Assembly (NCBI GenBank): GCA_045106715.1
Contig: JBGCFC010000009.1
Coordinates: 64,001-128,000, forward strand
Direction of reading: 5' to 3'
Length of the DNA: 64,000 bases
Source: Sandaracinaceae bacterium
GTDB taxonomy: Bacteria > Myxococcota_A > Polyangia > Polyangiales > Sandaracinaceae
The notes beneath the pieces are model-generated. The model did not search any database and was not told where the DNA came from. It saw nothing but the letters and a program-made list of their open reading frames with translations. Positions 10,408 through 28,332 of this stretch are shown here, piece by piece. The stretch's first letter is position 1, and every line of letters begins with the position of its first letter. A program made the position numbers and the translations under genes.

Positions 10408-12189
10408 GTGGGGAGAAGGAAGCCCAAACGACGCGCCAAGCGCGGGTCGGGGCCCTCGTCGCGCGCCCACGAGGCCAAGCGGGAGGGCGCGCCGACCGAG
10501 CCCGAACTGCCGAAGGCAGAGGACGCGAAGTCCCCACCGCGGGACTGGGCGGAGATCGGACGCGCGTACGGCCTGTTGCTCGCCAGCGCGGTACTGATGT
10601 TCCTCGGCTTTGCGGGGTTCGGCGTCTGGCCGCTGGCGTTTGTGGGCATGGTGCCCGCGCTGCTCGTCATGGACGGCCGCACGGGACCCTGGTTCGCGCG
10701 CTCGGAGCGGCCAACGGGCTGGGTGTTCTTCCGGCGGGCGCTCTTCTTCGGCTACGTCGCGTACTACGGCGGCTTCTATTGGGTCGTGAACACGATCGTG
10801 GATTTCGGGGGCTTCCCGTACCCGCTCGCGTTGGCGTTCGCCTCGATCTACTTCCTCTACCAGGCCACCGAGTACGTCTTGATGCTCTGGCTCTTCCGGC
10901 GCGCCCGGGATCGCGGCTTCTCCGCGGCCCTGTCGCTGGTGGCGGCGTTTGTCACCGCCGAACTCGTGTTCCCGGCCCTGTTTGACCACTTCTACGGCAA
11001 CAGCTTCCACATGTTGCCCTGGTTGGTGCAGATCGCCGACCTCGGGGGCCCGCTGCTCCTGAGCGGCCTCGCGATGCTGGGCAACGGCGCGCTCTACGAG
11101 GTGGTCCTCGGCCGCATCGAGAGGAGGCCGATGCCCTGGCGCGCGCCAGCGGCGTTCCTCGGGGCGATGGTGTTCACGCTCGGATACAGCGCCTATCGGA
11201 TCGACGAGGTCGATCGGCGCATGGCCGACGCCCCCACGATGACGGTCGGCGTCGTGCAGACCAACATGGGCATCTACGAGAAGCGGGAGGACCCGGGCGA
11301 AGGGTTGCGCCGCCACCTCGCCCAGTCCCGTGCACTCGAGGAAGAGCACAACCTCGATCTGCTCGTCTGGCCGGAGTCCGCCGCCACCTTCCCGCTGCCG
11401 CGAGACGAAGGGGTCGATGCGTTTCAGGCCTTTGGCCAGGCGGCGCGCTTCTACCGTGTCGAGGCCGGGCCGCCGCCGACGACGCCCACGATGTTTGGCG
11501 GGCTGAGCACCGAGCGAGGTCCAGACGGGCGGCTTCTCTACAACACCGCGTTCCTCACCGACCAAGACGGACTCGTCCAGGGCCACTACGACAAGACGTA
11601 CCTGCTCGCGTTCGGGGAGTACCTGCCGTTCGGCGAGACCTTCCCGATCATGTACGAGTGGAGCCCCAACACCGGGCACTTCCAGCAGGGCGATCATGTC
11701 CGGCCGCTCGAGCTGAACGGCTTCCGGATCGGAGCGCTCGTCTGCTACGAGGACATCCTCCCGAGCTTCGTGCGCCAGGTGATGGAGAACGACCCGCACG
11801 TCCTGGTCAACATCACCAACGACGCTTGGTTCGGCGACACCCAAGAGCCCTACATCCACCTGGCGCTGGCCAAGATGCGGGCCGTTGAGCAGCACCGCTA
11901 CCTCGTCCGCGCCACCAACACGGGGGTCAGCGCCATCATCGACCCGATGGGGCGCACGGTGGCGGAAGGACCGCTGTTTGGGCGATGGCAGGGCGCCGCC
12001 GAGGTCCACATGCTCGAGGGCCAGACGGTCTTCCAGACCCTCGGGCACTGGCCCGGCTTCCTCGCGCTCGGCACCATCGTGTACATTGGCTTCGTCGGAC
12101 GTCGGAATCCGTCTCCATCGCCGTCTCCGCCTGCTCCGGCCGCCTCTTCCGGGGCGGCCCTTCGCCGGCGCGACGACGAAGAAGAGTGA
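10408..12189 (+). CDS. lnt: apolipoprotein N-acyltransferase
   Basis: An N-terminal multi-TM region is followed by a CN-hydrolase domain with 'LLVWPESA' and the catalytic Cys in 'GALVCYEDI'. The GTG start is at 10408. Confidence 0.9.
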   Translation: MGRRKPKRRAKRGSGPSSRAHEAKREGAPTEPELPKAEDAKSPPRDWAEIGRAYGLLLASAVLMFLGFAGFGVWPLAFVGMVPALLVMDGRTGPWFARSERPTGWVFFRRALFFGYVAYYGGFYWVVNTIVDFGGFPYPLALAFASIYFLYQATEYVLMLWLFRRARDRGFSAALSLVAAFVTAELVFPALFDHFYGNSFHMLPWLVQIADLGGPLLLSGLAMLGNGALYEVVLGRIERRPMPWRAPAAFLGAMVFTLGYSAYRIDEVDRRMADAPTMTVGVVQTNMGIYEKREDPGEGLRRHLAQSRALEEEHNLDLLVWPESAATFPLPRDEGVDAFQAFGQAARFYRVEAGPPPTTPTMFGGLSTERGPDGRLLYNTAFLTDQDGLVQGHYDKTYLLAFGEYLPFGETFPIMYEWSPNTGHFQQGDHVRPLELNGFRIGALVCYEDILPSFVRQVMENDPHVLVNITNDAWFGDTQEPYIHLALAKMRAVEQHRYLVRATNTGVSAIIDPMGRTVAEGPLFGRWQGAAEVHMLEGQTVFQTLGHWPGFLALGTIVYIGFVGRRNPSPSPSPPAPAASSGAALRRRDDEEE

Positions 12190-19731: not shown

Positions 19732-20346
19732 TCAGCCGGCGACGGCGCGGATCGCGACGTTGACCCGGATCTCGTTGCTCACCTTGAGGCGAACGGGGAG
19801 CGGAATCGAAACGTTGTAGTCGGTCAGGCGGATGCGGAAGCTCGCCTGCGCGCGGATGGTGTCCGTCTCCACGCTCTCGTGAGAGGCGGGGATGAGGCGG
19901 ACCTGGGCGTTGGCGACGATGTCGTGGGTGACGCCGTGGATGCTAAAGCGGCCGTGGAGACGGACACGGGTAGACTGGTTCGGCTGGAGGGAGCTGGCGC
20001 CCTCGACGCGCGTGATCTCGAAGGTGGCGTTCGGGTTGGCGCCGGCGCCGAGCCAGTTGTCGCTGCGGAGATGCTCGTCCCGAAGGTCGATGCCCGTGCG
20101 GATCGAGGCCACTCGGACGTTGATCGTGCCGCGCGCGGCGGACAGGTTGCTCGGGTCGAGGCTGACGCTGCCCGTGACATGGCTGCTGACCCCCGTGATG
20201 GTCTCGAGCGGCGCGTCGGAGACAAACTGGATGCGGCTACCGCCGTCGTTGCGAATCTGGAAGTCGCGCGACTGGGCGGAGGCGACCGAGCTGAGGCCAA
20301 GGCCCAGCAGGGCGGCGAGGGCGAGGGTCGAAAGCGTCTTGTGCAT
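19732..20346 (-). CDS. YceI-like periplasmic protein (polyisoprenoid-binding fold)
   Basis: Signal peptide 'MHKTLSTLALAALLGLGLSSVASAQ' followed by a YceI-like beta-barrel pattern ('...ATFEITRVEG...HGRFSIHGVTHDI...'). Confidence 0.75.
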   Translation of the reverse strand: MHKTLSTLALAALLGLGLSSVASAQSRDFQIRNDGGSRIQFVSDAPLETITGVSSHVTGSVSLDPSNLSAARGTINVRVASIRTGIDLRDEHLRSDNWLGAGANPNATFEITRVEGASSLQPNQSTRVRLHGRFSIHGVTHDIVANAQVRLIPASHESVETDTIRAQASFRIRLTDYNVSIPLPVRLKVSNEIRVNVAIRAVAG

Positions 20347-20509: not shown

Positions 20510-21334
20510 TCAGAGACGCCGCAGCGTGACGGTGCCGGGCTCGCGTGGCTCCGTGGCGGAGGAGTCGCGGTAGCGGAGCTGTTCCCCGTCGACGCAGTAC
20601 TCCCAGCGCTTGCCCGAGAAGCCCCCCACGATCTCGTTGCTCATCGTGCTGTACGTGTCCATGTCGTCGATCACCGTCGACAGCGACGCGGTGCACTCGC
20701 AGTTGCCGGTGCTGTCCGCGGTGCACGACGCCTCGTCGACGAGCCCCCGCATCGCGTCTTCCAGCATCGAGCAGCTGAAGAACGCCGCGCAGACCGCCGG
20801 AAAGAACAGGTCCGTCTCGACCACCGATTCGGCGACCCGATGAGCGGCTCCGGAAGACTCGAACCGTACACGCCCGCGTCCACGTCCCTCGCGACGGGTG
20901 ACCATCGCGCCCGGGCAGCTGGAGATCGCCGACTCGATGTCCACCTCGAAGCAGCCGCCGCTGAGATCCCATGTGCCGACGATGTCCCCACCGCAGGGGG
21001 TTAGCGCCGGGCAGCTGCCGACGGGTCCGACGGTGAGGTCCACCCAGTCGGGGGCGGGGCGAGACGGGTCGGGCCAAGTGAGCCCGGCGTCAGGGTCGGC
21101 GCCCGCGTCCGTGGTGCCGGCGTCGACCGCGCCCGAGTCAGAGGTGCCGGCGTCAGGTGGGCCGGAATCGACGAGGCCCGCGTCCGCCGCGCCGCCGTCG
21201 GGCAACGTGGATCCGTCGAGGCCAGGGACACGCGCATCGGTCGGCCCGGCGTCCGAATCGCCGCCGCCTCCACACCCGGTGGCAACAGCGACAAGCAGGA
21301 GCAATGGAACCCGTGAGGAGATGTTCATGCTCAT
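20510..21334 (-). CDS. Cys-rich (12 Cys) Asp/Gly-rich lipoprotein, hypothetical
   Basis: Lipobox 'VATGC' and an acidic low-complexity linker. The start lies 44 nt downstream of the DUF2063 gene stop on the same strand. Confidence 0.55.
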   Translation of the reverse strand: MSMNISSRVPLLLLVAVATGCGGGGDSDAGPTDARVPGLDGSTLPDGGAADAGLVDSGPPDAGTSDSGAVDAGTTDAGADPDAGLTWPDPSRPAPDWVDLTVGPVGSCPALTPCGGDIVGTWDLSGGCFEVDIESAISSCPGAMVTRREGRGRGRVRFESSGAAHRVAESVVETDLFFPAVCAAFFSCSMLEDAMRGLVDEASCTADSTGNCECTASLSTVIDDMDTYSTMSNEIVGGFSGKRWEYCVDGEQLRYRDSSATEPREPGTVTLRRL

Positions 21335-21378: not shown

Positions 21379-22149
21379 CTACGCCGAACCGAGAATCAGA
21401 TCCTGCTCCACCAGGTCGGCCAACACCCCAGCCATGCCGTCGATGAAACGCGCGTCGGGCTCTCGCCCGAGGTCGGCCAGCACCCGGCGCACGCCGTCCG
21501 CGCAGCTCGTCCCTTCCTCGCTCGCTTCGCGCCAGGCGACAAAGAGCAACGCGCCGATGGGGTTGAGCACGTAGGTGGAGATTCGGGGGTTGCCTGGCTT
21601 CCGGTAGATGAGCGCGAGGTGCGGCTCCTCGAGGACCTCAGGAGACTCGCTGCTTTTGTCCACGCGATGGTGGAGGTCGAGCGTGCGCACCGTGCGGTTC
21701 CACACCGGAGGCCGCTCGAAGTCGAACTCCGGGTGCGTGCCGTCGGTCGGCTCACCGGGCAGAGATGCGACACGCCACTTGAGCGCCTCGAAGCGGGCCA
21801 GGTCGGGCAGGTGCGACGGCAGGGTCGGGTCGACCTCCCAGGCGGGGAGGGTGTGCGCGAGCAGCTCGTGAACGACCTCACGGATGAACCGACTCCGCGG
21901 TCCGTGGTCGGCCAAATACCCGGCGACCGCGTCCTCGAACATCGGCTCGCCGAGCACCGCCGCGGTCTTCGGGAGCCCGCTGCGAATCATCTCTCGCAGC
22001 CGAAAGCGGACCATGTGGCGGTAGAGTTTCCAGCGCTCGGGGTCGTCGTGCAGCGTGTCGAGGTCGGCTTTGGGCGGCTCGCGCTCCAAACACACGCGTG
22101 TGAACGCGCGCTCCAGCTCCGCGATCGTCGGGGCGGTGCCCTCACTCAT
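21379..22149 (-). CDS. DUF2063-family protein (partner subunit of MNIO/DUF692 enzymes)
   Basis: 256 aa starting 'MSEGTAPTIAELERAF'. The ATG at 22147-22149 overlaps the DUF692 stop (ATGA). Length and N-terminal helical region are typical of MbnC/TglI/BufC-like partners. Confidence 0.75.
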   Translation of the reverse strand: MSEGTAPTIAELERAFTRVCLEREPPKADLDTLHDDPERWKLYRHMVRFRLREMIRSGLPKTAAVLGEPMFEDAVAGYLADHGPRSRFIREVVHELLAHTLPAWEVDPTLPSHLPDLARFEALKWRVASLPGEPTDGTHPEFDFERPPVWNRTVRTLDLHHRVDKSSESPEVLEEPHLALIYRKPGNPRISTYVLNPIGALLFVAWREASEEGTSCADGVRRVLADLGREPDARFIDGMAGVLADLVEQDLILGSA

Positions 22150-23030
22150 CGGGCCACCGCCGATTCCCTTGCCGTGTGCCGCGCCTCGAACGCGGCGATC
22201 CCGCGCTGGTAGATGGTGTCGAGCTGCCTCACCTCGTCGAGCAGTTCCGCCAGCGGTGGGATGTTCTGGTCGCGCTCGAGAAGGACCGGTGTCGGCCCGA
22301 CGTGAGCCAGCGTGTACTCGAGCAACTCGAACACCCCTTCGCACACCGGTTCGCCGTGCGTGTCGATGATCAGGCCGTCCTTGCGGGTGAAATGTCCGGC
22401 GACATGCATCTGCACGACGCGCTCCCGCGGGATGCGATCGATGTACGGCTTTGGGTCGAACCCGTGATTCAGCGAGTTGACGTAGATGTTGTTCACGTCG
22501 AGCAGGAGCTTGCAGTCCGCCGCCTCGAGCACCTCGAGCAGGAAGTCCGGCTCGTCCCATCCGCCCCGCTCCGCCGGGTCGGCGTAGAAGCTGATGTTCT
22601 CGATCGCCACGGGGCGCTCGATGGCGTCGCGCAGTTCTGTGACGCGCGCGGCCACGACGTCGACCGCCTCTCGGGTGAAAGGCAGTGGAAGGAGATCGTG
22701 GAGGTAGAGCCCGTCGATGCCGGCGAAGCAGAGGTGGTCGCTGTACCAAGGCGCGTCGACCTCATCGAGCAGCACCTTGAGTGACTTCACGTAGCCCGGC
22801 TCGAACGGCGACGTGGTCCCGAAACACAGGGTCAGGCCGTGGGGGACGACCGGCCATCCCTCCTGCGCCTTCTCCAGGTTCATACGGAAACGCCCGCCCC
22901 TGTCCACGTAGTTCTCGGGATGGATCTCCAGCCAGTTCACTTCGTTGGGCGCCTGCTCGAAGAACGCATCCGCCATGTCGTGACGGAGCCCAAGCCCCAC
23001 GCCCTCTGCCGCCTGTCGTTCAGCCATCAT
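22146..23030 (-). CDS. DUF692 / multinuclear non-heme iron oxidase (MNIO, MbnB/TglH/BufB-like TIM-barrel enzyme)
   Basis: 'MMAERQAAEGVGLGLRHDMADAFFE...NWLEIHPENY...', 'WYSDHLCF' and 'IENISFY' match the DUF692 xylose-isomerase-like TIM barrel. The start was taken at the MM codons at 23025-23030, traced codon by codon. Confidence 0.85.
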   Translation of the reverse strand: MMAERQAAEGVGLGLRHDMADAFFEQAPNEVNWLEIHPENYVDRGGRFRMNLEKAQEGWPVVPHGLTLCFGTTSPFEPGYVKSLKVLLDEVDAPWYSDHLCFAGIDGLYLHDLLPLPFTREAVDVVAARVTELRDAIERPVAIENISFYADPAERGGWDEPDFLLEVLEAADCKLLLDVNNIYVNSLNHGFDPKPYIDRIPRERVVQMHVAGHFTRKDGLIIDTHGEPVCEGVFELLEYTLAHVGPTPVLLERDQNIPPLAELLDEVRQLDTIYQRGIAAFEARHTARESAVAR

Positions 23031-23080
23031 CGGTAGGTATGCCTCGAAATCGATTCGGATACAGGCCGTTAACGCAAGAA

Positions 23081-23108
23081 CGCGGGAGATCCCGAAGGTT
23101 CTCCCGCG
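23081..23108 (-). terminator. GC-rich hairpin (9-bp perfect stem 'cgcgggaga/tctcccgcg') between precursor and MNIO genes; putative attenuator/partial terminator
   Basis: Palindrome read from the sequence. On the minus-strand RNA it is followed by 'UUCUUGCGUU'. Confidence 0.4.
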
Positions 23109-23162: not shown

Positions 23163-23450
23163 TCACTCACTCTCTTCAGCGGCGCCGCAGCTGCCAGCGC
23201 CGCAGGACGCCTCGGCACCCGCCTCTTCGCCACCCTCGGACGCACCCTCTTCGGACGCGCCGGAGCAGGACGCCTCGCCGGCACCGCTGCAGGACGCCTC
23301 GCCGCTTCCGCTGCAGGACGCTTCGCCGCCACCGGTCTCGGTCTCGCCGCCACCTTCGCCGCCGGCGTCGCCGCCGCCACAGCCGTACGCCGTGAGGCCA
23401 AGAGTCGCCGCCGCAATCGCTACGAGTGAGGTCTTGAGCTTCGTGTTCAT
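23163..23450 (-). CDS. exported acidic Cys-repeat peptide; candidate MNIO (RiPP) precursor
   Basis: The 95-aa product is 'MNTKLKTSLVAIAAATLGLTAYGCGGG...GEASCSGSGEASCSGAGEASCSGASEEG...EASCGAGSCGAAEESE'. It has a Sec or lipoprotein signal, 6 Cys and tandem 21-nt repeats. The ATG at 23448-23450 is preceded by 'GGGGAG'. It lies directly upstream of the MNIO gene on the same strand. Confidence 0.6.
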   Translation of the reverse strand: MNTKLKTSLVAIAAATLGLTAYGCGGGDAGGEGGGETETGGGEASCSGSGEASCSGAGEASCSGASEEGASEGGEEAGAEASCGAGSCGAAEESE

Positions 23451-23832
23451 TTCCAAAATTCTCCCCGAACCAATCACAAGGGTTCGATTGGGCCGCTCGG
23501 ACGACACTCGTCAGTAGCGACCGTCTGATGAGGTCGATGCGCATCTTACGCCAGATCAACCTCGGAGTTACAAGTACCTAACGAACATTTTCTGCCGATG
23601 CGGACCGAAACCCAGGCGTTTCGTAGGAGAGGTTCCCACATGGGACTACCCCCCTCGTCGGACAAACCGTCCAATGCGCTCAGAACGGCCTGGCCCCGGC
23701 CCACCCGGGTTGTGCGCACACGCCGATTACGACGCTGCGCGCCGTTCGGATCGAGGCGTGCCCGCGCCAACGCAGCGCGGTGGGGTCTCCGATCCACCCG
23801 GGTCCGATCGACGCGGGGTCCGATCGACGCGG

Positions 23833-25662
23833 TCAGATCGAGGGTGGCAGCAGAAGCGTGAACGCGCCGCTCTCGTCGGTCACCGCGCGGCCGATCTGGA
23901 TGGCGCGGGTCGATGTGTCGGTGCTCTCGACGATCGCGTAGGCCCGCACCTCGGCGCCGACGGCGAGCGCGGTCCCTTCGAAGCGCGCCACGCCGGTCAT
24001 CGTCACGGGCGTCGCCAGCTCGAAGACGTTGTTGAGCGGCGCGGCCGACCCCCCGATCGGCTGGTCGGGGACGACGAGCCACGGGTAGTTGGAGCCGCCC
24101 GCGGGCTCGACCACGACGTCGTAGACGCCCACGTCGAGGTTGACGTTGAACACGCCGTCGAGGTCGGTGACGGTGCTGCTGGACCGTGCGAGTGAGGCGA
24201 TCGGTCCGAGCATGCCCATCCAGTCGACGCCGCGGGGACGCGCCCGGATCTGAGCGGCCTCGAACCCGACCGCTTCGGGCGTGCGCACGACTCCGCCGTA
24301 CTGAGCGCGGAACGGGACCTGGAACACTTGGCCGCGCACCTCGCCTTGCTCCGGGCCGATGCGAACCGTCTGCCGCAGGATGCGCAGCGTCTCGCCGATC
24401 TCCGACGACGCCTCGGGCGTGACGACGACGTCGTAGGTGGCTTGCTCCTCCGCGGTGCCGGGCAGGAGCTGCACCTCGAAGCGCCCCGCGTCTTCGCCGA
24501 CACCTGTTGTGGTGCTGGTGCGGAAGCTCCCCACGACGCCCGTCTCGCCGTCCACGACGTTCAACGCGCTGAGGCTGACCGAGGCGTTCTCGACCGGGCG
24601 GCCCCGATCGTCCTCGACGAGCCCCTGGTAGGTCACGATGGTGCCCACCTCCGGGGTCAGGATGGTGACCATGCCGCCGACCTCGAAGAGCGAGCTCGGG
24701 TCCGCGCTGAAGGTGGGGCTCGGGCCCTCTTCTTCGATGCGTTCCGCGCTGGGCGTTACGGTGTAGAGCCAGTCGTTGGCGCGCCACGCGGCGAGCGGGA
24801 GCACGACGCGGAAGGTGCCAGCTTCCACGTCCTCTGCCGTGTCGGCCCCGGTTGTGTACACGGACGACAGCAGCTGGTTGGTCTCCGCGCGCACGACGCG
24901 GACGATCATCTGGTCCTGGGGCTCGCCCTCTCCGTCGACCACGGTCCCGCTCATCTCGACCAGGCAGTCCGCCTCGGCCGAGGGGTCTTCCATGACGGCG
25001 CTGGTGCACAAGTCGGGGTAGTTGAGGAAGTCGAGGAACGCGCTGTCGCTCCCGCTCGGGCTGCGGTAGGTCGCGCCGACTCGGAGCGGAGGGCGCCTCG
25101 CGGCCCATGCGCCGGTCGGGGTGACCGTGATGTCGTAGTCGCGGCCCGGCAGCAGGCTGACGGTGAGGTTGCTGTTCCGGTTCTCGCCGTCCTGGGTGAC
25201 CTCTTCCACCGCCTGCGCGCTCAGCCGCGTCGACGGGCCGGCTTCGAAGGCGCTCTGGAGGTTGAACGTCACCGTGGCGGTGATGGCCTCCTCGGTCCGG
25301 GTGTCCCACACCAGCCCGCTGGTGCGGACGGGCTCGGGCAGCACGAGCAGTCGCGGCTCATCCTCGGGGCCATCGAGCTCGAAGCTCTCGAAGCTCACCA
25401 GGATGGGCGTGCCGCCCGCGGCGGTCGTCTCCGGGAGCACCTCGAGCCCGATCCGGATCGGCTCGCGAACCTCGGTCGTGCACATGCCGAGCTCGACGTC
25501 GCAGGTGCCGGTCCGGCAGTCGCCATCGCCTTCGCATCGGTTGGCGAGTGGGGGCGCGTCGGCAAAGCTGCACCCGTATTGCGAACCGAGCGCGAGTGCC
25601 AGCACGGCCGCCGCTGAGAACCCGAGGGCGGCACGAAGCCGCGCTGAACTCAAGCCGGTCAT
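23833..25662 (-). CDS. large secreted/lipoprotein, beta-rich, hypothetical
   Basis: ATG at 25660-25662 gives 'MTGLSSARLRAALGFSAAAVLALALGSQYGC'. The Thr/Val/Glu-rich composition suggests a beta-sandwich. The start overlaps the upstream gene stop (ATGA). Confidence 0.6.
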   Translation of the reverse strand: MTGLSSARLRAALGFSAAAVLALALGSQYGCSFADAPPLANRCEGDGDCRTGTCDVELGMCTTEVREPIRIGLEVLPETTAAGGTPILVSFESFELDGPEDEPRLLVLPEPVRTSGLVWDTRTEEAITATVTFNLQSAFEAGPSTRLSAQAVEEVTQDGENRNSNLTVSLLPGRDYDITVTPTGAWAARRPPLRVGATYRSPSGSDSAFLDFLNYPDLCTSAVMEDPSAEADCLVEMSGTVVDGEGEPQDQMIVRVVRAETNQLLSSVYTTGADTAEDVEAGTFRVVLPLAAWRANDWLYTVTPSAERIEEEGPSPTFSADPSSLFEVGGMVTILTPEVGTIVTYQGLVEDDRGRPVENASVSLSALNVVDGETGVVGSFRTSTTTGVGEDAGRFEVQLLPGTAEEQATYDVVVTPEASSEIGETLRILRQTVRIGPEQGEVRGQVFQVPFRAQYGGVVRTPEAVGFEAAQIRARPRGVDWMGMLGPIASLARSSSTVTDLDGVFNVNLDVGVYDVVVEPAGGSNYPWLVVPDQPIGGSAAPLNNVFELATPVTMTGVARFEGTALAVGAEVRAYAIVESTDTSTRAIQIGRAVTDESGAFTLLLPPSI

Positions 25663-26252
25663 TGACTGCCCGCGCAAGTGGTCATGTCGGGGGTGGGGTT
25701 GCCGTCGTTGAAGCCGCCGACGAACCACACCCCAATGCCCAGATCGCGTCGGGTCCCCTCCATCATGCCGTCCTCGACCGGTTCGAGGCTGGGGAGGTTT
25801 TGGAACTCGCGGCTGACGTGCAGCTCGATCCGGTTGCAGTTTGGAACCAAGTCGGCCCGGGAGACGGTGAACTCGATGCGCCGCTCCAGCGTCCCCGCGG
25901 AACCATCGATGTCGATCTCGGTGACCGTACCCGGTCCCTCGTCACGATTTAGGTTCACGTAGATGCGCCCCTCGAGCTCGTCGAGGAGGTTGGCGTCTCG
26001 CACGATGGCCGAGATCGTCACGTCACGCGTGAAGGGGCTGGCCGCCCCACTGTCTCCGGGGAACGGATTGTCAATGGGGCCCACCTGGCGCGTGATGGTC
26101 TGAAACATCGGCGTCGTTGCGGTTCCGTGCACCGAGGGCGGGAAGTTCGCCGGCTCGTCGAACGACGGTTCCTGTGTGATGAGGCAGCCCATGAGGGAAG
26201 TGGTGGAGACCGATCCGAAGCACACCGCGAGAGCGAGAAGCGAACGGCTCAC
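25659..26252 (-). CDS. lipoprotein, hypothetical
   Basis: GTG at 26250-26252 preceded by 'AGAGGA', giving 'VSRSLLALAVCFGSVSTTSLMGC'. Confidence 0.45.
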   Translation of the reverse strand: MSRSLLALAVCFGSVSTTSLMGCLITQEPSFDEPANFPPSVHGTATTPMFQTITRQVGPIDNPFPGDSGAASPFTRDVTISAIVRDANLLDELEGRIYVNLNRDEGPGTVTEIDIDGSAGTLERRIEFTVSRADLVPNCNRIELHVSREFQNLPSLEPVEDGMMEGTRRDLGIGVWFVGGFNDGNPTPDMTTCAGSQ

Positions 26253-26391
26253 CCACGATCCTCTAGCAATGTGAGTGCCACGCACCGATGCACGCGAGAT
26301 CGAAACGGTCTCGGTGGAAGAATCAGAGCTGGCGGCACGAAGCTGCGACATCGATGTCAGGGACCCGGTGGGAGCGCGAGGAGCGCAAATC

Positions 26392-28218
<1,827 letters not shown>

Positions 28219-28332
28219 GCCGGGGAGGATACCCGACGCCGGGCGCCTGTGTCCGCTTCGGCGCGGTGTCCGCGCCAACGGAAGGGCGTGGACCGGCAAC
28301 CGGGGCGGTCGTTGTGCCGATGAGCCGGCCGT

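Follow-up and report, generated by a model that had tools for sequence, protein, structure and literature searches.

The MNIO-PME1 gene clusters are among the most widespread pathways for peptides that are made ribosomally and modified post-translationally (RiPPs), and their products buffer copper. The substrates characterised to date are either rich in Lys (EGKCG, Cys-Lys) or folded domains of the DUF2282 type, and come from Pseudomonadota. Antoine et al. 2025 described the precursor families Buf1, Buf2, Buf_EGKCG/oxazolin and 'CxxxxC', together with 776 unclassified small Cys-containing signal-peptide open reading frames (ORFs) adjoining MNIO genes; the 'CxxxxC' family comprises 76 proteins of Pseudomonadati, with Lactamase_B_2 in 54% of its biosynthetic gene clusters (BGCs) and DoxX in many, and lipoprotein signals are found in about 16% of Buf2 precursors (PMC12452194). 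Gadgil et al. 2026 unified the MNIO-PME1 products as 5-thiooxazole (5TO) 'captophorins', reported 74 Myxococcota loci and 508 'other repeat' BGCs, and presented the FonB enzyme, for which 5TO formation has been reconstituted in vitro (PMC13097082). Lipidation has been demonstrated experimentally for NedA of Neisseria dentiae, an EGKCG peptide encoded with NedB and NedC, and Cluster X, an uncharacterised group of lipoproteins near MNIOs, shares a conserved CxxxxC motif (PMC13056109). Here we analyse a small ORF in a 64,000-nucleotide stretch of a Sandaracinaceae bacterium (Myxococcota; assembly GCA_045106715.1, contig JBGCFC010000009.1, positions 64,001 to 128,000 of the forward strand), hereafter the window. 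We propose that this ORF is the A gene of an A-B-C MNIO-PME1 captophorin RiPP operon, and that its product is a lipid-anchored, acidic, Ser-type variant belonging to Sandaracinaceae and other Myxococcota, a reading that we consider likely. The operon and the parts of its first gene are as follows.

23163..23450, minus strand: precursor peptide gene, with signal peptide, lipobox and acidic repeat core (ORF and translation, coding-type substitutions, orthologues).
23379..23450, minus strand: lipoprotein-type signal peptide, residues 1-24, MNTKLKTSLVAIAAATLGLTAYG followed by C, lipobox TAYG-C, Cys24 codon at 23379-23381 (lipobox rule, Cys conservation).
23256..23327, minus strand: three tandem 24-nt units, each GEASCSG[S/A], with Cys46, Cys54 and Cys62 (Tandem Repeats Finder, lag analysis, orthologue copy number).
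23184..23213, minus strand: terminal double 5-mer EASCG-AGSCG, with Cys83 and Cys88, C-x4-C (conserved columns, hhalign).
22146..23033, minus strand: MNIO (DUF692) enzyme, HvfB/BufB/FonB-like (Pfam, NCBIfam, PDB, FonB alignment).
21379..22122, minus strand: PME1 partner, DUF2063/HvfC-like (Pfam, NCBIfam, synteny).

The precursor ORF runs on the minus strand from an ATG at 23450 to 23163 (95 codons plus stop) and its translation is MNTKLKTSLVAIAAATLGLTAYGCGGGDAGGEGGGETETGGGEASCSGSGEASCSGAGEASCSGASEEGASEGGEEAGAEASCGAGSCGAAEESE. From Cys24 on, its 72 residues are drawn from seven amino-acid types (G23 E15 A13 S12 C6 T2 D1) with no Lys or any other basic residue, which gives a net charge of about -16. 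A first-pass annotation of the window, made from the letters alone, had read this ORF as a precursor peptide with about 20 Glu and six Cys in its core; the count is instead 15 Glu and one Asp, and the figure of six Cys stands if the lipobox Cys24 is included, the core proper having five (Cys46, Cys54, Cys62, Cys83, Cys88). The three evenly spaced EASCSG motifs and the terminal EASCGAGSCG that it described are indeed present in the minus-strand translation. An AlphaFold2 model of the precursor predicts a single element, the signal-peptide helix at residues 3-21, and gives the core pLDDT values <50; on this model the core is disordered.

Over the first 27 codons, six orthologous loci differ at codon positions 1/2/3 in 27/35/126 instances, and 107 codon changes are synonymous against 50 non-synonymous. 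Since this pattern is dominated by the third position, the reading frame is genuinely coding. The concern that the ORF could be a chance product of GC-rich low-complexity repeat DNA arises from the many long spurious ORFs on both strands of the high-GC window, two of them over the precursor region, and from a third-position GC content (GC3) of only 0.78 in the precursor. Against it stand the 126 third-position differences, compared with 27 and 35, the conserved start, ribosome-binding site (RBS) and promoter-like block, the 32 protein clusters that conserve the Cys motifs, the lipobox and the signal peptide, and the calling of the same gene in independent assemblies. The substitution pattern and this conservation exclude a spurious ORF to the extent that we give it next to no weight.

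The gene lies immediately upstream of the MNIO and DUF2063 partner genes, which bears out its earlier reading as a precursor peptide, and the same-strand order of precursor, MNIO and partner is the A-B-C layout of captophorin clusters, a class to which oxazolins, gonophorin, fontiphorin and the bufferins belong. The MNIO matches PF05114 over residues 11-274 (E=3e-96) and the structure 3BWW in the PDB (E=3e-60), and is 45% identical to FonB (E=4e-70). Its best NCBIfam matches are HvfB (306.8 bits, cut-off 360) and BufB (284.6 bits, cut-off 310), and its score against MbnB is 42.5 bits (cut-off 325). The metal-ligand motifs HPEN, HGL, SDH, EN, DVNN, HxAGH and DTHG align with 3BWW and FonB, and the catalytic Asp (FonB D249), within LLERD, is kept in the window and in 27 of 29 loci, that is, in all that align there. 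The partner protein matches PF09836 (E=6.7e-10) and, over residues 27-245, NCBIfam HvfC (66.2 bits, E=3.8e-18), under the cut-off of 142; a PDB sequence search with it returned no match.

An MNIO search restricted to one genome per species gave 28 loci, in 21 of which a DUF2063 partner follows the MNIO gene. The best match is 79% identical and comes from a Sandaracinaceae metagenome-assembled genome (MAG); other Myxococcota follow at 43-73%, and beyond them lie Methylophilus at 40% and a mixed set at 34-45%, made up of one further Myxococcales locus, one Chloroflexia MAG and otherwise Pseudomonadota, including Thermomonas-type loci at 35-36%. The triad of peptide, MNIO and partner is kept in the Myxococcota loci L001 and L003-L016, the flanking genes being kept in the closest clade only, and the A-B-C order holds in the Myxococcota loci whose sequence covers the upstream region. 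Six direct homologues of the peptide were found, all metagenome- or MAG-derived. A syntenic locus in GCA_046766215.1 comprises, in order, a sigma-54 activator, proteins of 207 aa and 566 aa, the peptide, the MNIO and HvfC.

When the precursors are arranged by divergence of their MNIO, they form a graded series. In the closest clade the core reads (GEASCSG)2-3 + EASCGAGSCG; at 56-59% MNIO identity we find GEASCAGEGSCG and GEASCGEGSCG; L012 has EGSCGEGSCG; at 44-48% identity there are K[DE]GSCGAKK repeats; Methylophilus has EGKCG/KEGSC[HS]; and in Thermomonas and related loci the precursors are DUF2282 bufferins; the distant MNIOs of L024-L029 (34-36% identity) have DUF2282 precursors beside them. 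The series connects EASCSG to the canonical EGKCG/KCGExKCG. The intermediate of L012 itself passes the NCBIfam HvfA-domain model, with 28.9 bits against a cut-off of 19.5. Near related MNIOs in four Myxococcales MAGs (L013, L015, L016, L022) the more distant lipoprotein precursors are basic, not acidic; their K[DE]GSCGAKK repeats are accompanied by a long spacer rich in Ala, Pro and Thr and, at the C-terminus, by EAGCGAG[S/G]CAAKKKK, so that the charge has flipped inside the same lineage-specific family.

These comparisons bear directly on the possibility that the ORF is an ordinary unmodified acidic Cys lipoprotein that lies by chance beside an MNIO-PME1 pair whose true substrate is elsewhere or absent. 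The peptide is recognised by no family model, and sizeable shares of bufferin precursors and MNIO genes are unlinked (Antoine et al., PMC12452194), both of which would fit such an arrangement. However, adjacency and order survive at MNIO identities of only 43-59%, where every other neighbour is different, and this persistence makes the explanation unlikely. In addition, the precursor is the only small Cys-rich ORF ahead of the MNIO gene, its core motifs change in step with MNIO divergence, and the conserved Cys contexts fit the known substrate rules. We regard an unmodified bystander as distinctly improbable.

The repeats themselves differ in one respect from the first-pass annotation, which had described tandem 21-nt repeats. 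The repeats are real, and their period is 24 nt: Tandem Repeats Finder places the array at 23265-23334 (period 24, 2.9 copies, 86% matches, score 112) and self-identity is 0.71 at a lag of 24 nt against 0.43 at 21 nt, which rules out a 21-nt period in the window. Each 24-nt unit encodes eight residues, GEASCSG plus S or A; the units lie at 23304-23327, 23280-23303 and 23256-23279, and neighbours are identical at 20/24 nt. In the metagenome homologue P0003, the first two units abut directly (GGEASCSGGEASCSG), which yields a spacing of 7 aa (21 nt); the 21-nt period is thus present in a relative and absent from the window. A separate tandem repeat of 16 nt (23788-23841, 3.6 copies, 85% matches) is located where the upstream 609-aa gene has its 3' end.

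The number of single units varies among close orthologues, as had been suggested by the first-pass annotation, for which a lack of orthologues with the same repeat would have counted against the idea; such orthologues exist. There are three EASC[S/A]G units in the window, L003, L007, P0001, P0003 and P0006, two in L001/P0004, L004, L005, P0002 and P0005, and from none to several in the wider family. In the two-unit genomes, both units use the same Ser codon class, AGY-Ser in L001 and L005 and TCG-Ser in L004; the three-unit genomes mix AGY and TCN classes (window, L003) or use the TCN type only (L007). These codon-class patterns suggest independent gain or loss of repeat units, within the limits set by such short units. 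The Ser after the Cys is kept across the AGC/TCN codon-family switch, which hints at selection on that position, again only as a suggestion given the shortness of the units. A search of 1.84 billion representative proteins with the family profile retrieved only 32 clusters at E<=0.001, essentially all of which combine a lipoprotein signal peptide with an acidic linker, single GEASC[S/G/A]G units in varying number and, at the C-terminus, [EQ][AG]SCG[EA]GSCG; in P0027 the double unit occurs three times, complete each time.

The terminal motif is the most conserved element of the core, with E80, S82, C83, G84, G86, S87, C88 and G89 invariant or nearly invariant in an alignment of 14 family sequences. 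In an hhalign comparison of the family profile with FonA/HvfA/NgoA (93.1% probability, E=3.2e-7), EASCGAGSCG falls on EGKCGEGKCG; on this alignment, EASCG-AGSCG is the counterpart of EGKCG-EGKCG in HvfA and FonA. The substrate rules established for FonBC are a preference for Glu at position 1, tolerance of Ala, Thr and Arg at position 3, Cys at position 4 and a small residue at position 5, and turnover requires two repeats; the validated substrate NgoA has Ser at position 3 (AEGSCG) (PMC13097082). Both E-A-S-C-S and E-A-S-C-G/A-G-S-C-G match the FonBC register, with Glu at 1, Cys at 4 and position 5 occupied by a small residue. The GEASCSG[S/A] units are predicted single modification sites.

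Several observations weigh against assignment of the locus to the captophorins. The MNIO and its partner score under the HvfB, BufB and HvfC equivalog cut-offs, so that isofunctionality is not guaranteed. The FonB specificity positions read R-H for R-R and D-Q for D-F in the window MNIO, and Ser at position 5 lies outside the tested FonBC variants, of which Ala alone was tolerated. The core is of low complexity and profile matches to it therefore weigh less than usual, and the precursor gave no match at E<=10 to NCBIfam NF050137 (KCGExKCG_twice), NF050188 (HvfA) or DUF2282 (PF10048); scans against Pfam and NCBIfam as a whole assigned it to no family. Downstream of HvfC in the window, L008 or L012 there is neither DoxX nor Lactamase_B_2, and no ECF (extracytoplasmic function) sigma/anti-sigma or copper-resistance genes are among the annotated genes nearby. 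The specificity positions were also considered as a covariation signal and rejected, being uninformative because D-Q is common to DUF2282-type enzymes as well; R-H is clade-specific.

Much of this would also suit an MNIO substrate whose chemistry or target is other than canonical 5-thiooxazole copper buffering. For example, the C-x4-C pair alone might be modified while the EASCSG units keep free thiols, another heterocycle or a crosslink might be formed, or the product might serve another metal, the cell surface or vesicles. The sub-cut-off scores, the R-H and D-Q residues, the position-5 Ser and the lack of DoxX or copper genes nearby all point in that direction, as do a core charge of -16 without Lys, unlike the Lys-Cys and Cys-Lys captophorins (PMC13097082), and the many different reactions that the MNIO superfamily catalyses (PMC12452194). 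Nevertheless, the enzyme groups with the 5TO enzymes (45% identity to FonB; best matches HvfB/BufB, not ChrH, ApyH or MbnB), all PME1-dependent MNIOs tested to date install 5TO (PMC13097082), and the E-x-x-C-small register is held at all five core sites. A departure from the canonical chemistry or target is, in our judgement, unlikely, and the captophorin assignment remains the one that we favour.

The N-terminus of the precursor supports its description as a lipoprotein. The rule that we applied is of the PROSITE PS51257 type (uncharged h-region, [LIVMFWSTAG]2-[LIVMFYSTAGCQ]-[AGS]-C, N-terminal K/R), and LTAYG-C passes it, with the Cys at position 24 and a Lys within residues 1-7. In the family alignment of 14 sequences (A2) the Cys24 column does not vary. 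Each of the 17 Myxococcota precursors tested has a lipobox Cys; 16 of them satisfy the full rule and the remaining one lacks only the N-terminal K/R. Where the first-pass annotation had left LTAYGC as either a signal peptidase I (SPase I) site or an atypical lipobox, the lipobox is now favoured over the SPase I site, since some homologues have a fully canonical LTAGC or FTAGC. The precursor is thus predicted to be a lipoprotein with a lipidated Cys24. In the Methylophilus relative the signal is of the SPase I type, in place of a lipobox. The window also encodes the last enzyme that such a pathway would use.

10408-12186, plus strand: apolipoprotein N-acyltransferase Lnt, with LNT_N and CN_hydrolase domains (Pfam).

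This gene lies ~11 kb from the precursor gene and is also found within the syntenic block of L001; its proximity probably reflects housekeeping synteny.

Conserved elements surround the precursor gene on both sides and could govern its expression.

23540..23574, minus strand: promoter-like block, CTTGTAAC-N16-GCGTAAGATGCG (invariant columns in 5 distinct orthologous upstream regions).
23461..23466, minus strand: ribosome-binding site GGGGAG, 10 nt upstream of the ATG (GGGAG in all aligned loci).
23081..23108, minus strand: GC-rich hairpin, CGCGGGAG...CTCCCGCG, in the gap that separates the precursor gene from the MNIO gene, with a T-rich tract after it at 23071-23080 (fold z-score, conservation).

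The promoter-like block lies ~90-125 nt upstream of the ATG and reads CTTGTnAC, 16 nt, GCGTA-nnn-TGCG in the 382-nt upstream region, compared over 5 distinct orthologous sequences; T-A-n-n-n-T and GCGTA are conserved within it. It may be read either as an ECF-type promoter (GTAAC-N16-CGTA) or as a sigma-70 promoter whose -10 element is TAnnnT and whose spacer measures 19 nt. A sigma-54 promoter before the precursor gene was also considered and rejected: the TGGCGTAAGATGCGCA block has four mismatches to TGGCAC-N5-TTGCW, nothing is present there at <=3 mismatches, and its 'GG' is replaced by 'AG' in L001 and L002. At <=3 mismatches, 97 sigma-54-type matches were observed against 115 expected by chance. 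Between the promoter-like block and the RBS lies a self-complementary conserved block, GGTCGCy...GACGAG...CGTC...GCGACC (~23488-23521, minus strand). It is conserved mainly as sequence, a single pair covaries and Rfam has no match to it; an Rfam scan of the region gave nothing relevant.

The hairpin downstream of the precursor gene has a fold z-score of -3.2 and is kept in six loci (CGCGGGRG...CTCCCGCG), where alignment and consensus folding show an invariant 3' arm and compensatory changes in the upper stem. It was missed by a simple terminator scan, its tail having only 4 T in 8. These features are consistent with a terminator- or attenuator-like element, possibly a partial terminator that raises the ratio of precursor to enzyme transcripts.

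Based on the above data, we propose the following mechanism, in which the modification chemistry, the identity of the modified Cys, lipidation, localisation, metal and physiological role are inferred by analogy with the characterised systems. The precursor would be expressed from a conserved promoter and RBS of its own, and the hairpin 3' of its stop probably passes only part of the transcripts into the enzyme genes. In the cytoplasm, the iron MNIO, complexed with the DUF2063 partner, would oxidise core Cys residues by four electrons each (-4 Da) into 5-thiooxazoles. The targets would be Cys in E-x-S-C-(S/G) contexts, with the Cys83/Cys88 pair as the canonical double site and Cys46, Cys54 and Cys62 of the GEASCSG units as extra single sites of variable copy number. 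Sec would then export the product and Lgt would place diacylglycerol (DAG) on the unmodified Cys24; cleavage between G23 and C24 by signal peptidase II and N-acylation of the new N-terminus by Lnt would result in a membrane-tethered 'DAG-RiPP'. The N and S donors of the thiooxazoles may bind copper at the membrane or in the periplasm, and so buffer copper stress.

Within this framework, a functionally distinct branch of the captophorins can be imagined, in which the EASCSG units are processed unlike the terminal pair and the product is a membrane- or vesicle-displayed polyanionic multi-thiooxazole chelator with another metal preference or role. We consider such a branch doubtful, with the odds well against it; if it exists, its possible roles include a cell-surface function, or the binding of another soft metal alongside hard cations held by carboxylates.

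The genes around the operon are conserved to a lesser extent. Upstream, a sigma-54-controlled unit is syntenic with the peptide operon in the closest clade only.

26392-28221, minus strand: sigma-54 activator gene with FHA-GAF-AAA+-HTH architecture.
26265-26280, minus strand: near-perfect sigma-54 promoter, TGGCACTCACATTGCT (TGGCAC-N5-TTGC at the same place in L001, L004, L005 and L007).
25659-26351, minus strand: small lipoprotein gene (230-aa ORF, annotated ATG at 26351).
23833-25662, minus strand: further gene downstream of the sigma-54 promoter.
20510-21334, minus strand: gene for a 274-aa Cys-containing lipoprotein, between the HvfC-like gene and YceI (no family match).
19732-20346, minus strand: YceI-family gene.

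The TGGCACTCACATTGCT promoter is positioned between the activator gene and the 230-aa lipoprotein gene. Because the annotated ATG of the latter at 26351 lies upstream of the promoter, this ORF probably has its true start at a GTG, at 26252 (MSRSLLALAVCFGSVSTTSLMGC, which is itself a lipobox). Downstream of the operon, the 274-aa lipoprotein gene has a counterpart in none of 30 related loci and hence looks like an insertion specific to the window. The YceI gene is on the operon strand in the window, L003, L006 and L007 and is inverted in L001 (12153-12800) and L004; a YceI gene also lies beside a Legionella bufferin cluster (supplement of PMC12452194).

What is particular to the family of the window precursor is its Ser-flanked, Lys-free acidic core, its 8-residue single-site repeat, the natural variation in copy number, a minimal three-gene cluster, the restriction to Myxococcota and the failure of curated models. 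With two or three single sites, one double site and a lipoprotein anchor, the locus is a compact natural test case that could be used to probe how an MNIO chooses among Cys residues while sparing that of the lipobox, how many sites bind each copper, and what membrane tethering does. The general logic of the system is already known, and current understanding is not overturned, because lipidated oxazolins and CxxxxC lipoprotein precursors were reported in 2025-2026.

Among the closest known systems, methanobactin shares the logic of a copper-binding RiPP derived from MNIO-modified Cys, but it is made from a leader-peptide precursor by oxazolone-thioamide chemistry and is secreted as a chalkophore for copper uptake, whereas the window precursor carries a signal peptide, its MNIO is far under the MbnB cut-off and no MbnC gene is present. 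The bufferins (Buf1/Buf2, Caulobacter BufABC), in which thiooxazoles and copper buffering are described, have in common with the window an MNIO with PME1 and a Sec-exported Cys precursor; the window precursor differs in having no DUF2282 or other folded domain and a disordered, repeat-built core, and its locus in a BufB score under the cut-off and the lack of DoxX or ECF sigma/NrsF. The 'CxxxxC' family of Antoine et al. is likened here by description, through its signal peptide, C-x4-C and an MNIO with an authentic PME-type 1 partner, and differs in the Lactamase_B_2 and DoxX that are missing at the window locus. Cluster X, also compared by description, shares C-x4-C (C83-G-A-G-S-C88 in the window) and may be the same family as the window precursor. 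The supplements to the captophorin and MNIO landscape papers contain neither EASCSG nor GSCG or related strings.

The DAG-RiPPs (lipo-NedA) share a signal of the signal peptidase II type with a conserved lipobox Cys, ahead of a core that in the window is predicted to be MNIO-modified as well; the core motif and charge of the window precursor differ from those of NedA. A likeness in operon and core links the window to oxazolin/HvfA, gonophorin NgoA and fontiphorin FonA. The window departs from the oxazolin (Lys-Cys) group in coming from Myxococcota, not Pseudomonadota, and in the absence of EGKCG 5-mers; its core is without Lys, with Ser at position 3 (as in part of NgoA) and Ser at 5 in the single units; its units are 8-residue and single-site, compared with the 5-mer or 17-residue repeats of HvfA/FonA; and, set against the basic HvfA-type peptides, it is strongly acidic, has a lipoprotein signal and has no DoxX gene. 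In common with them it has an A-B-C operon with an MNIO and a DUF2063 PME1, a Sec signal peptide instead of a leader, and a repeat-built core of variable repeat number in which Cys sits in an E-x-x-C-small 5-mer and a C-x4-C double 5-mer is present.

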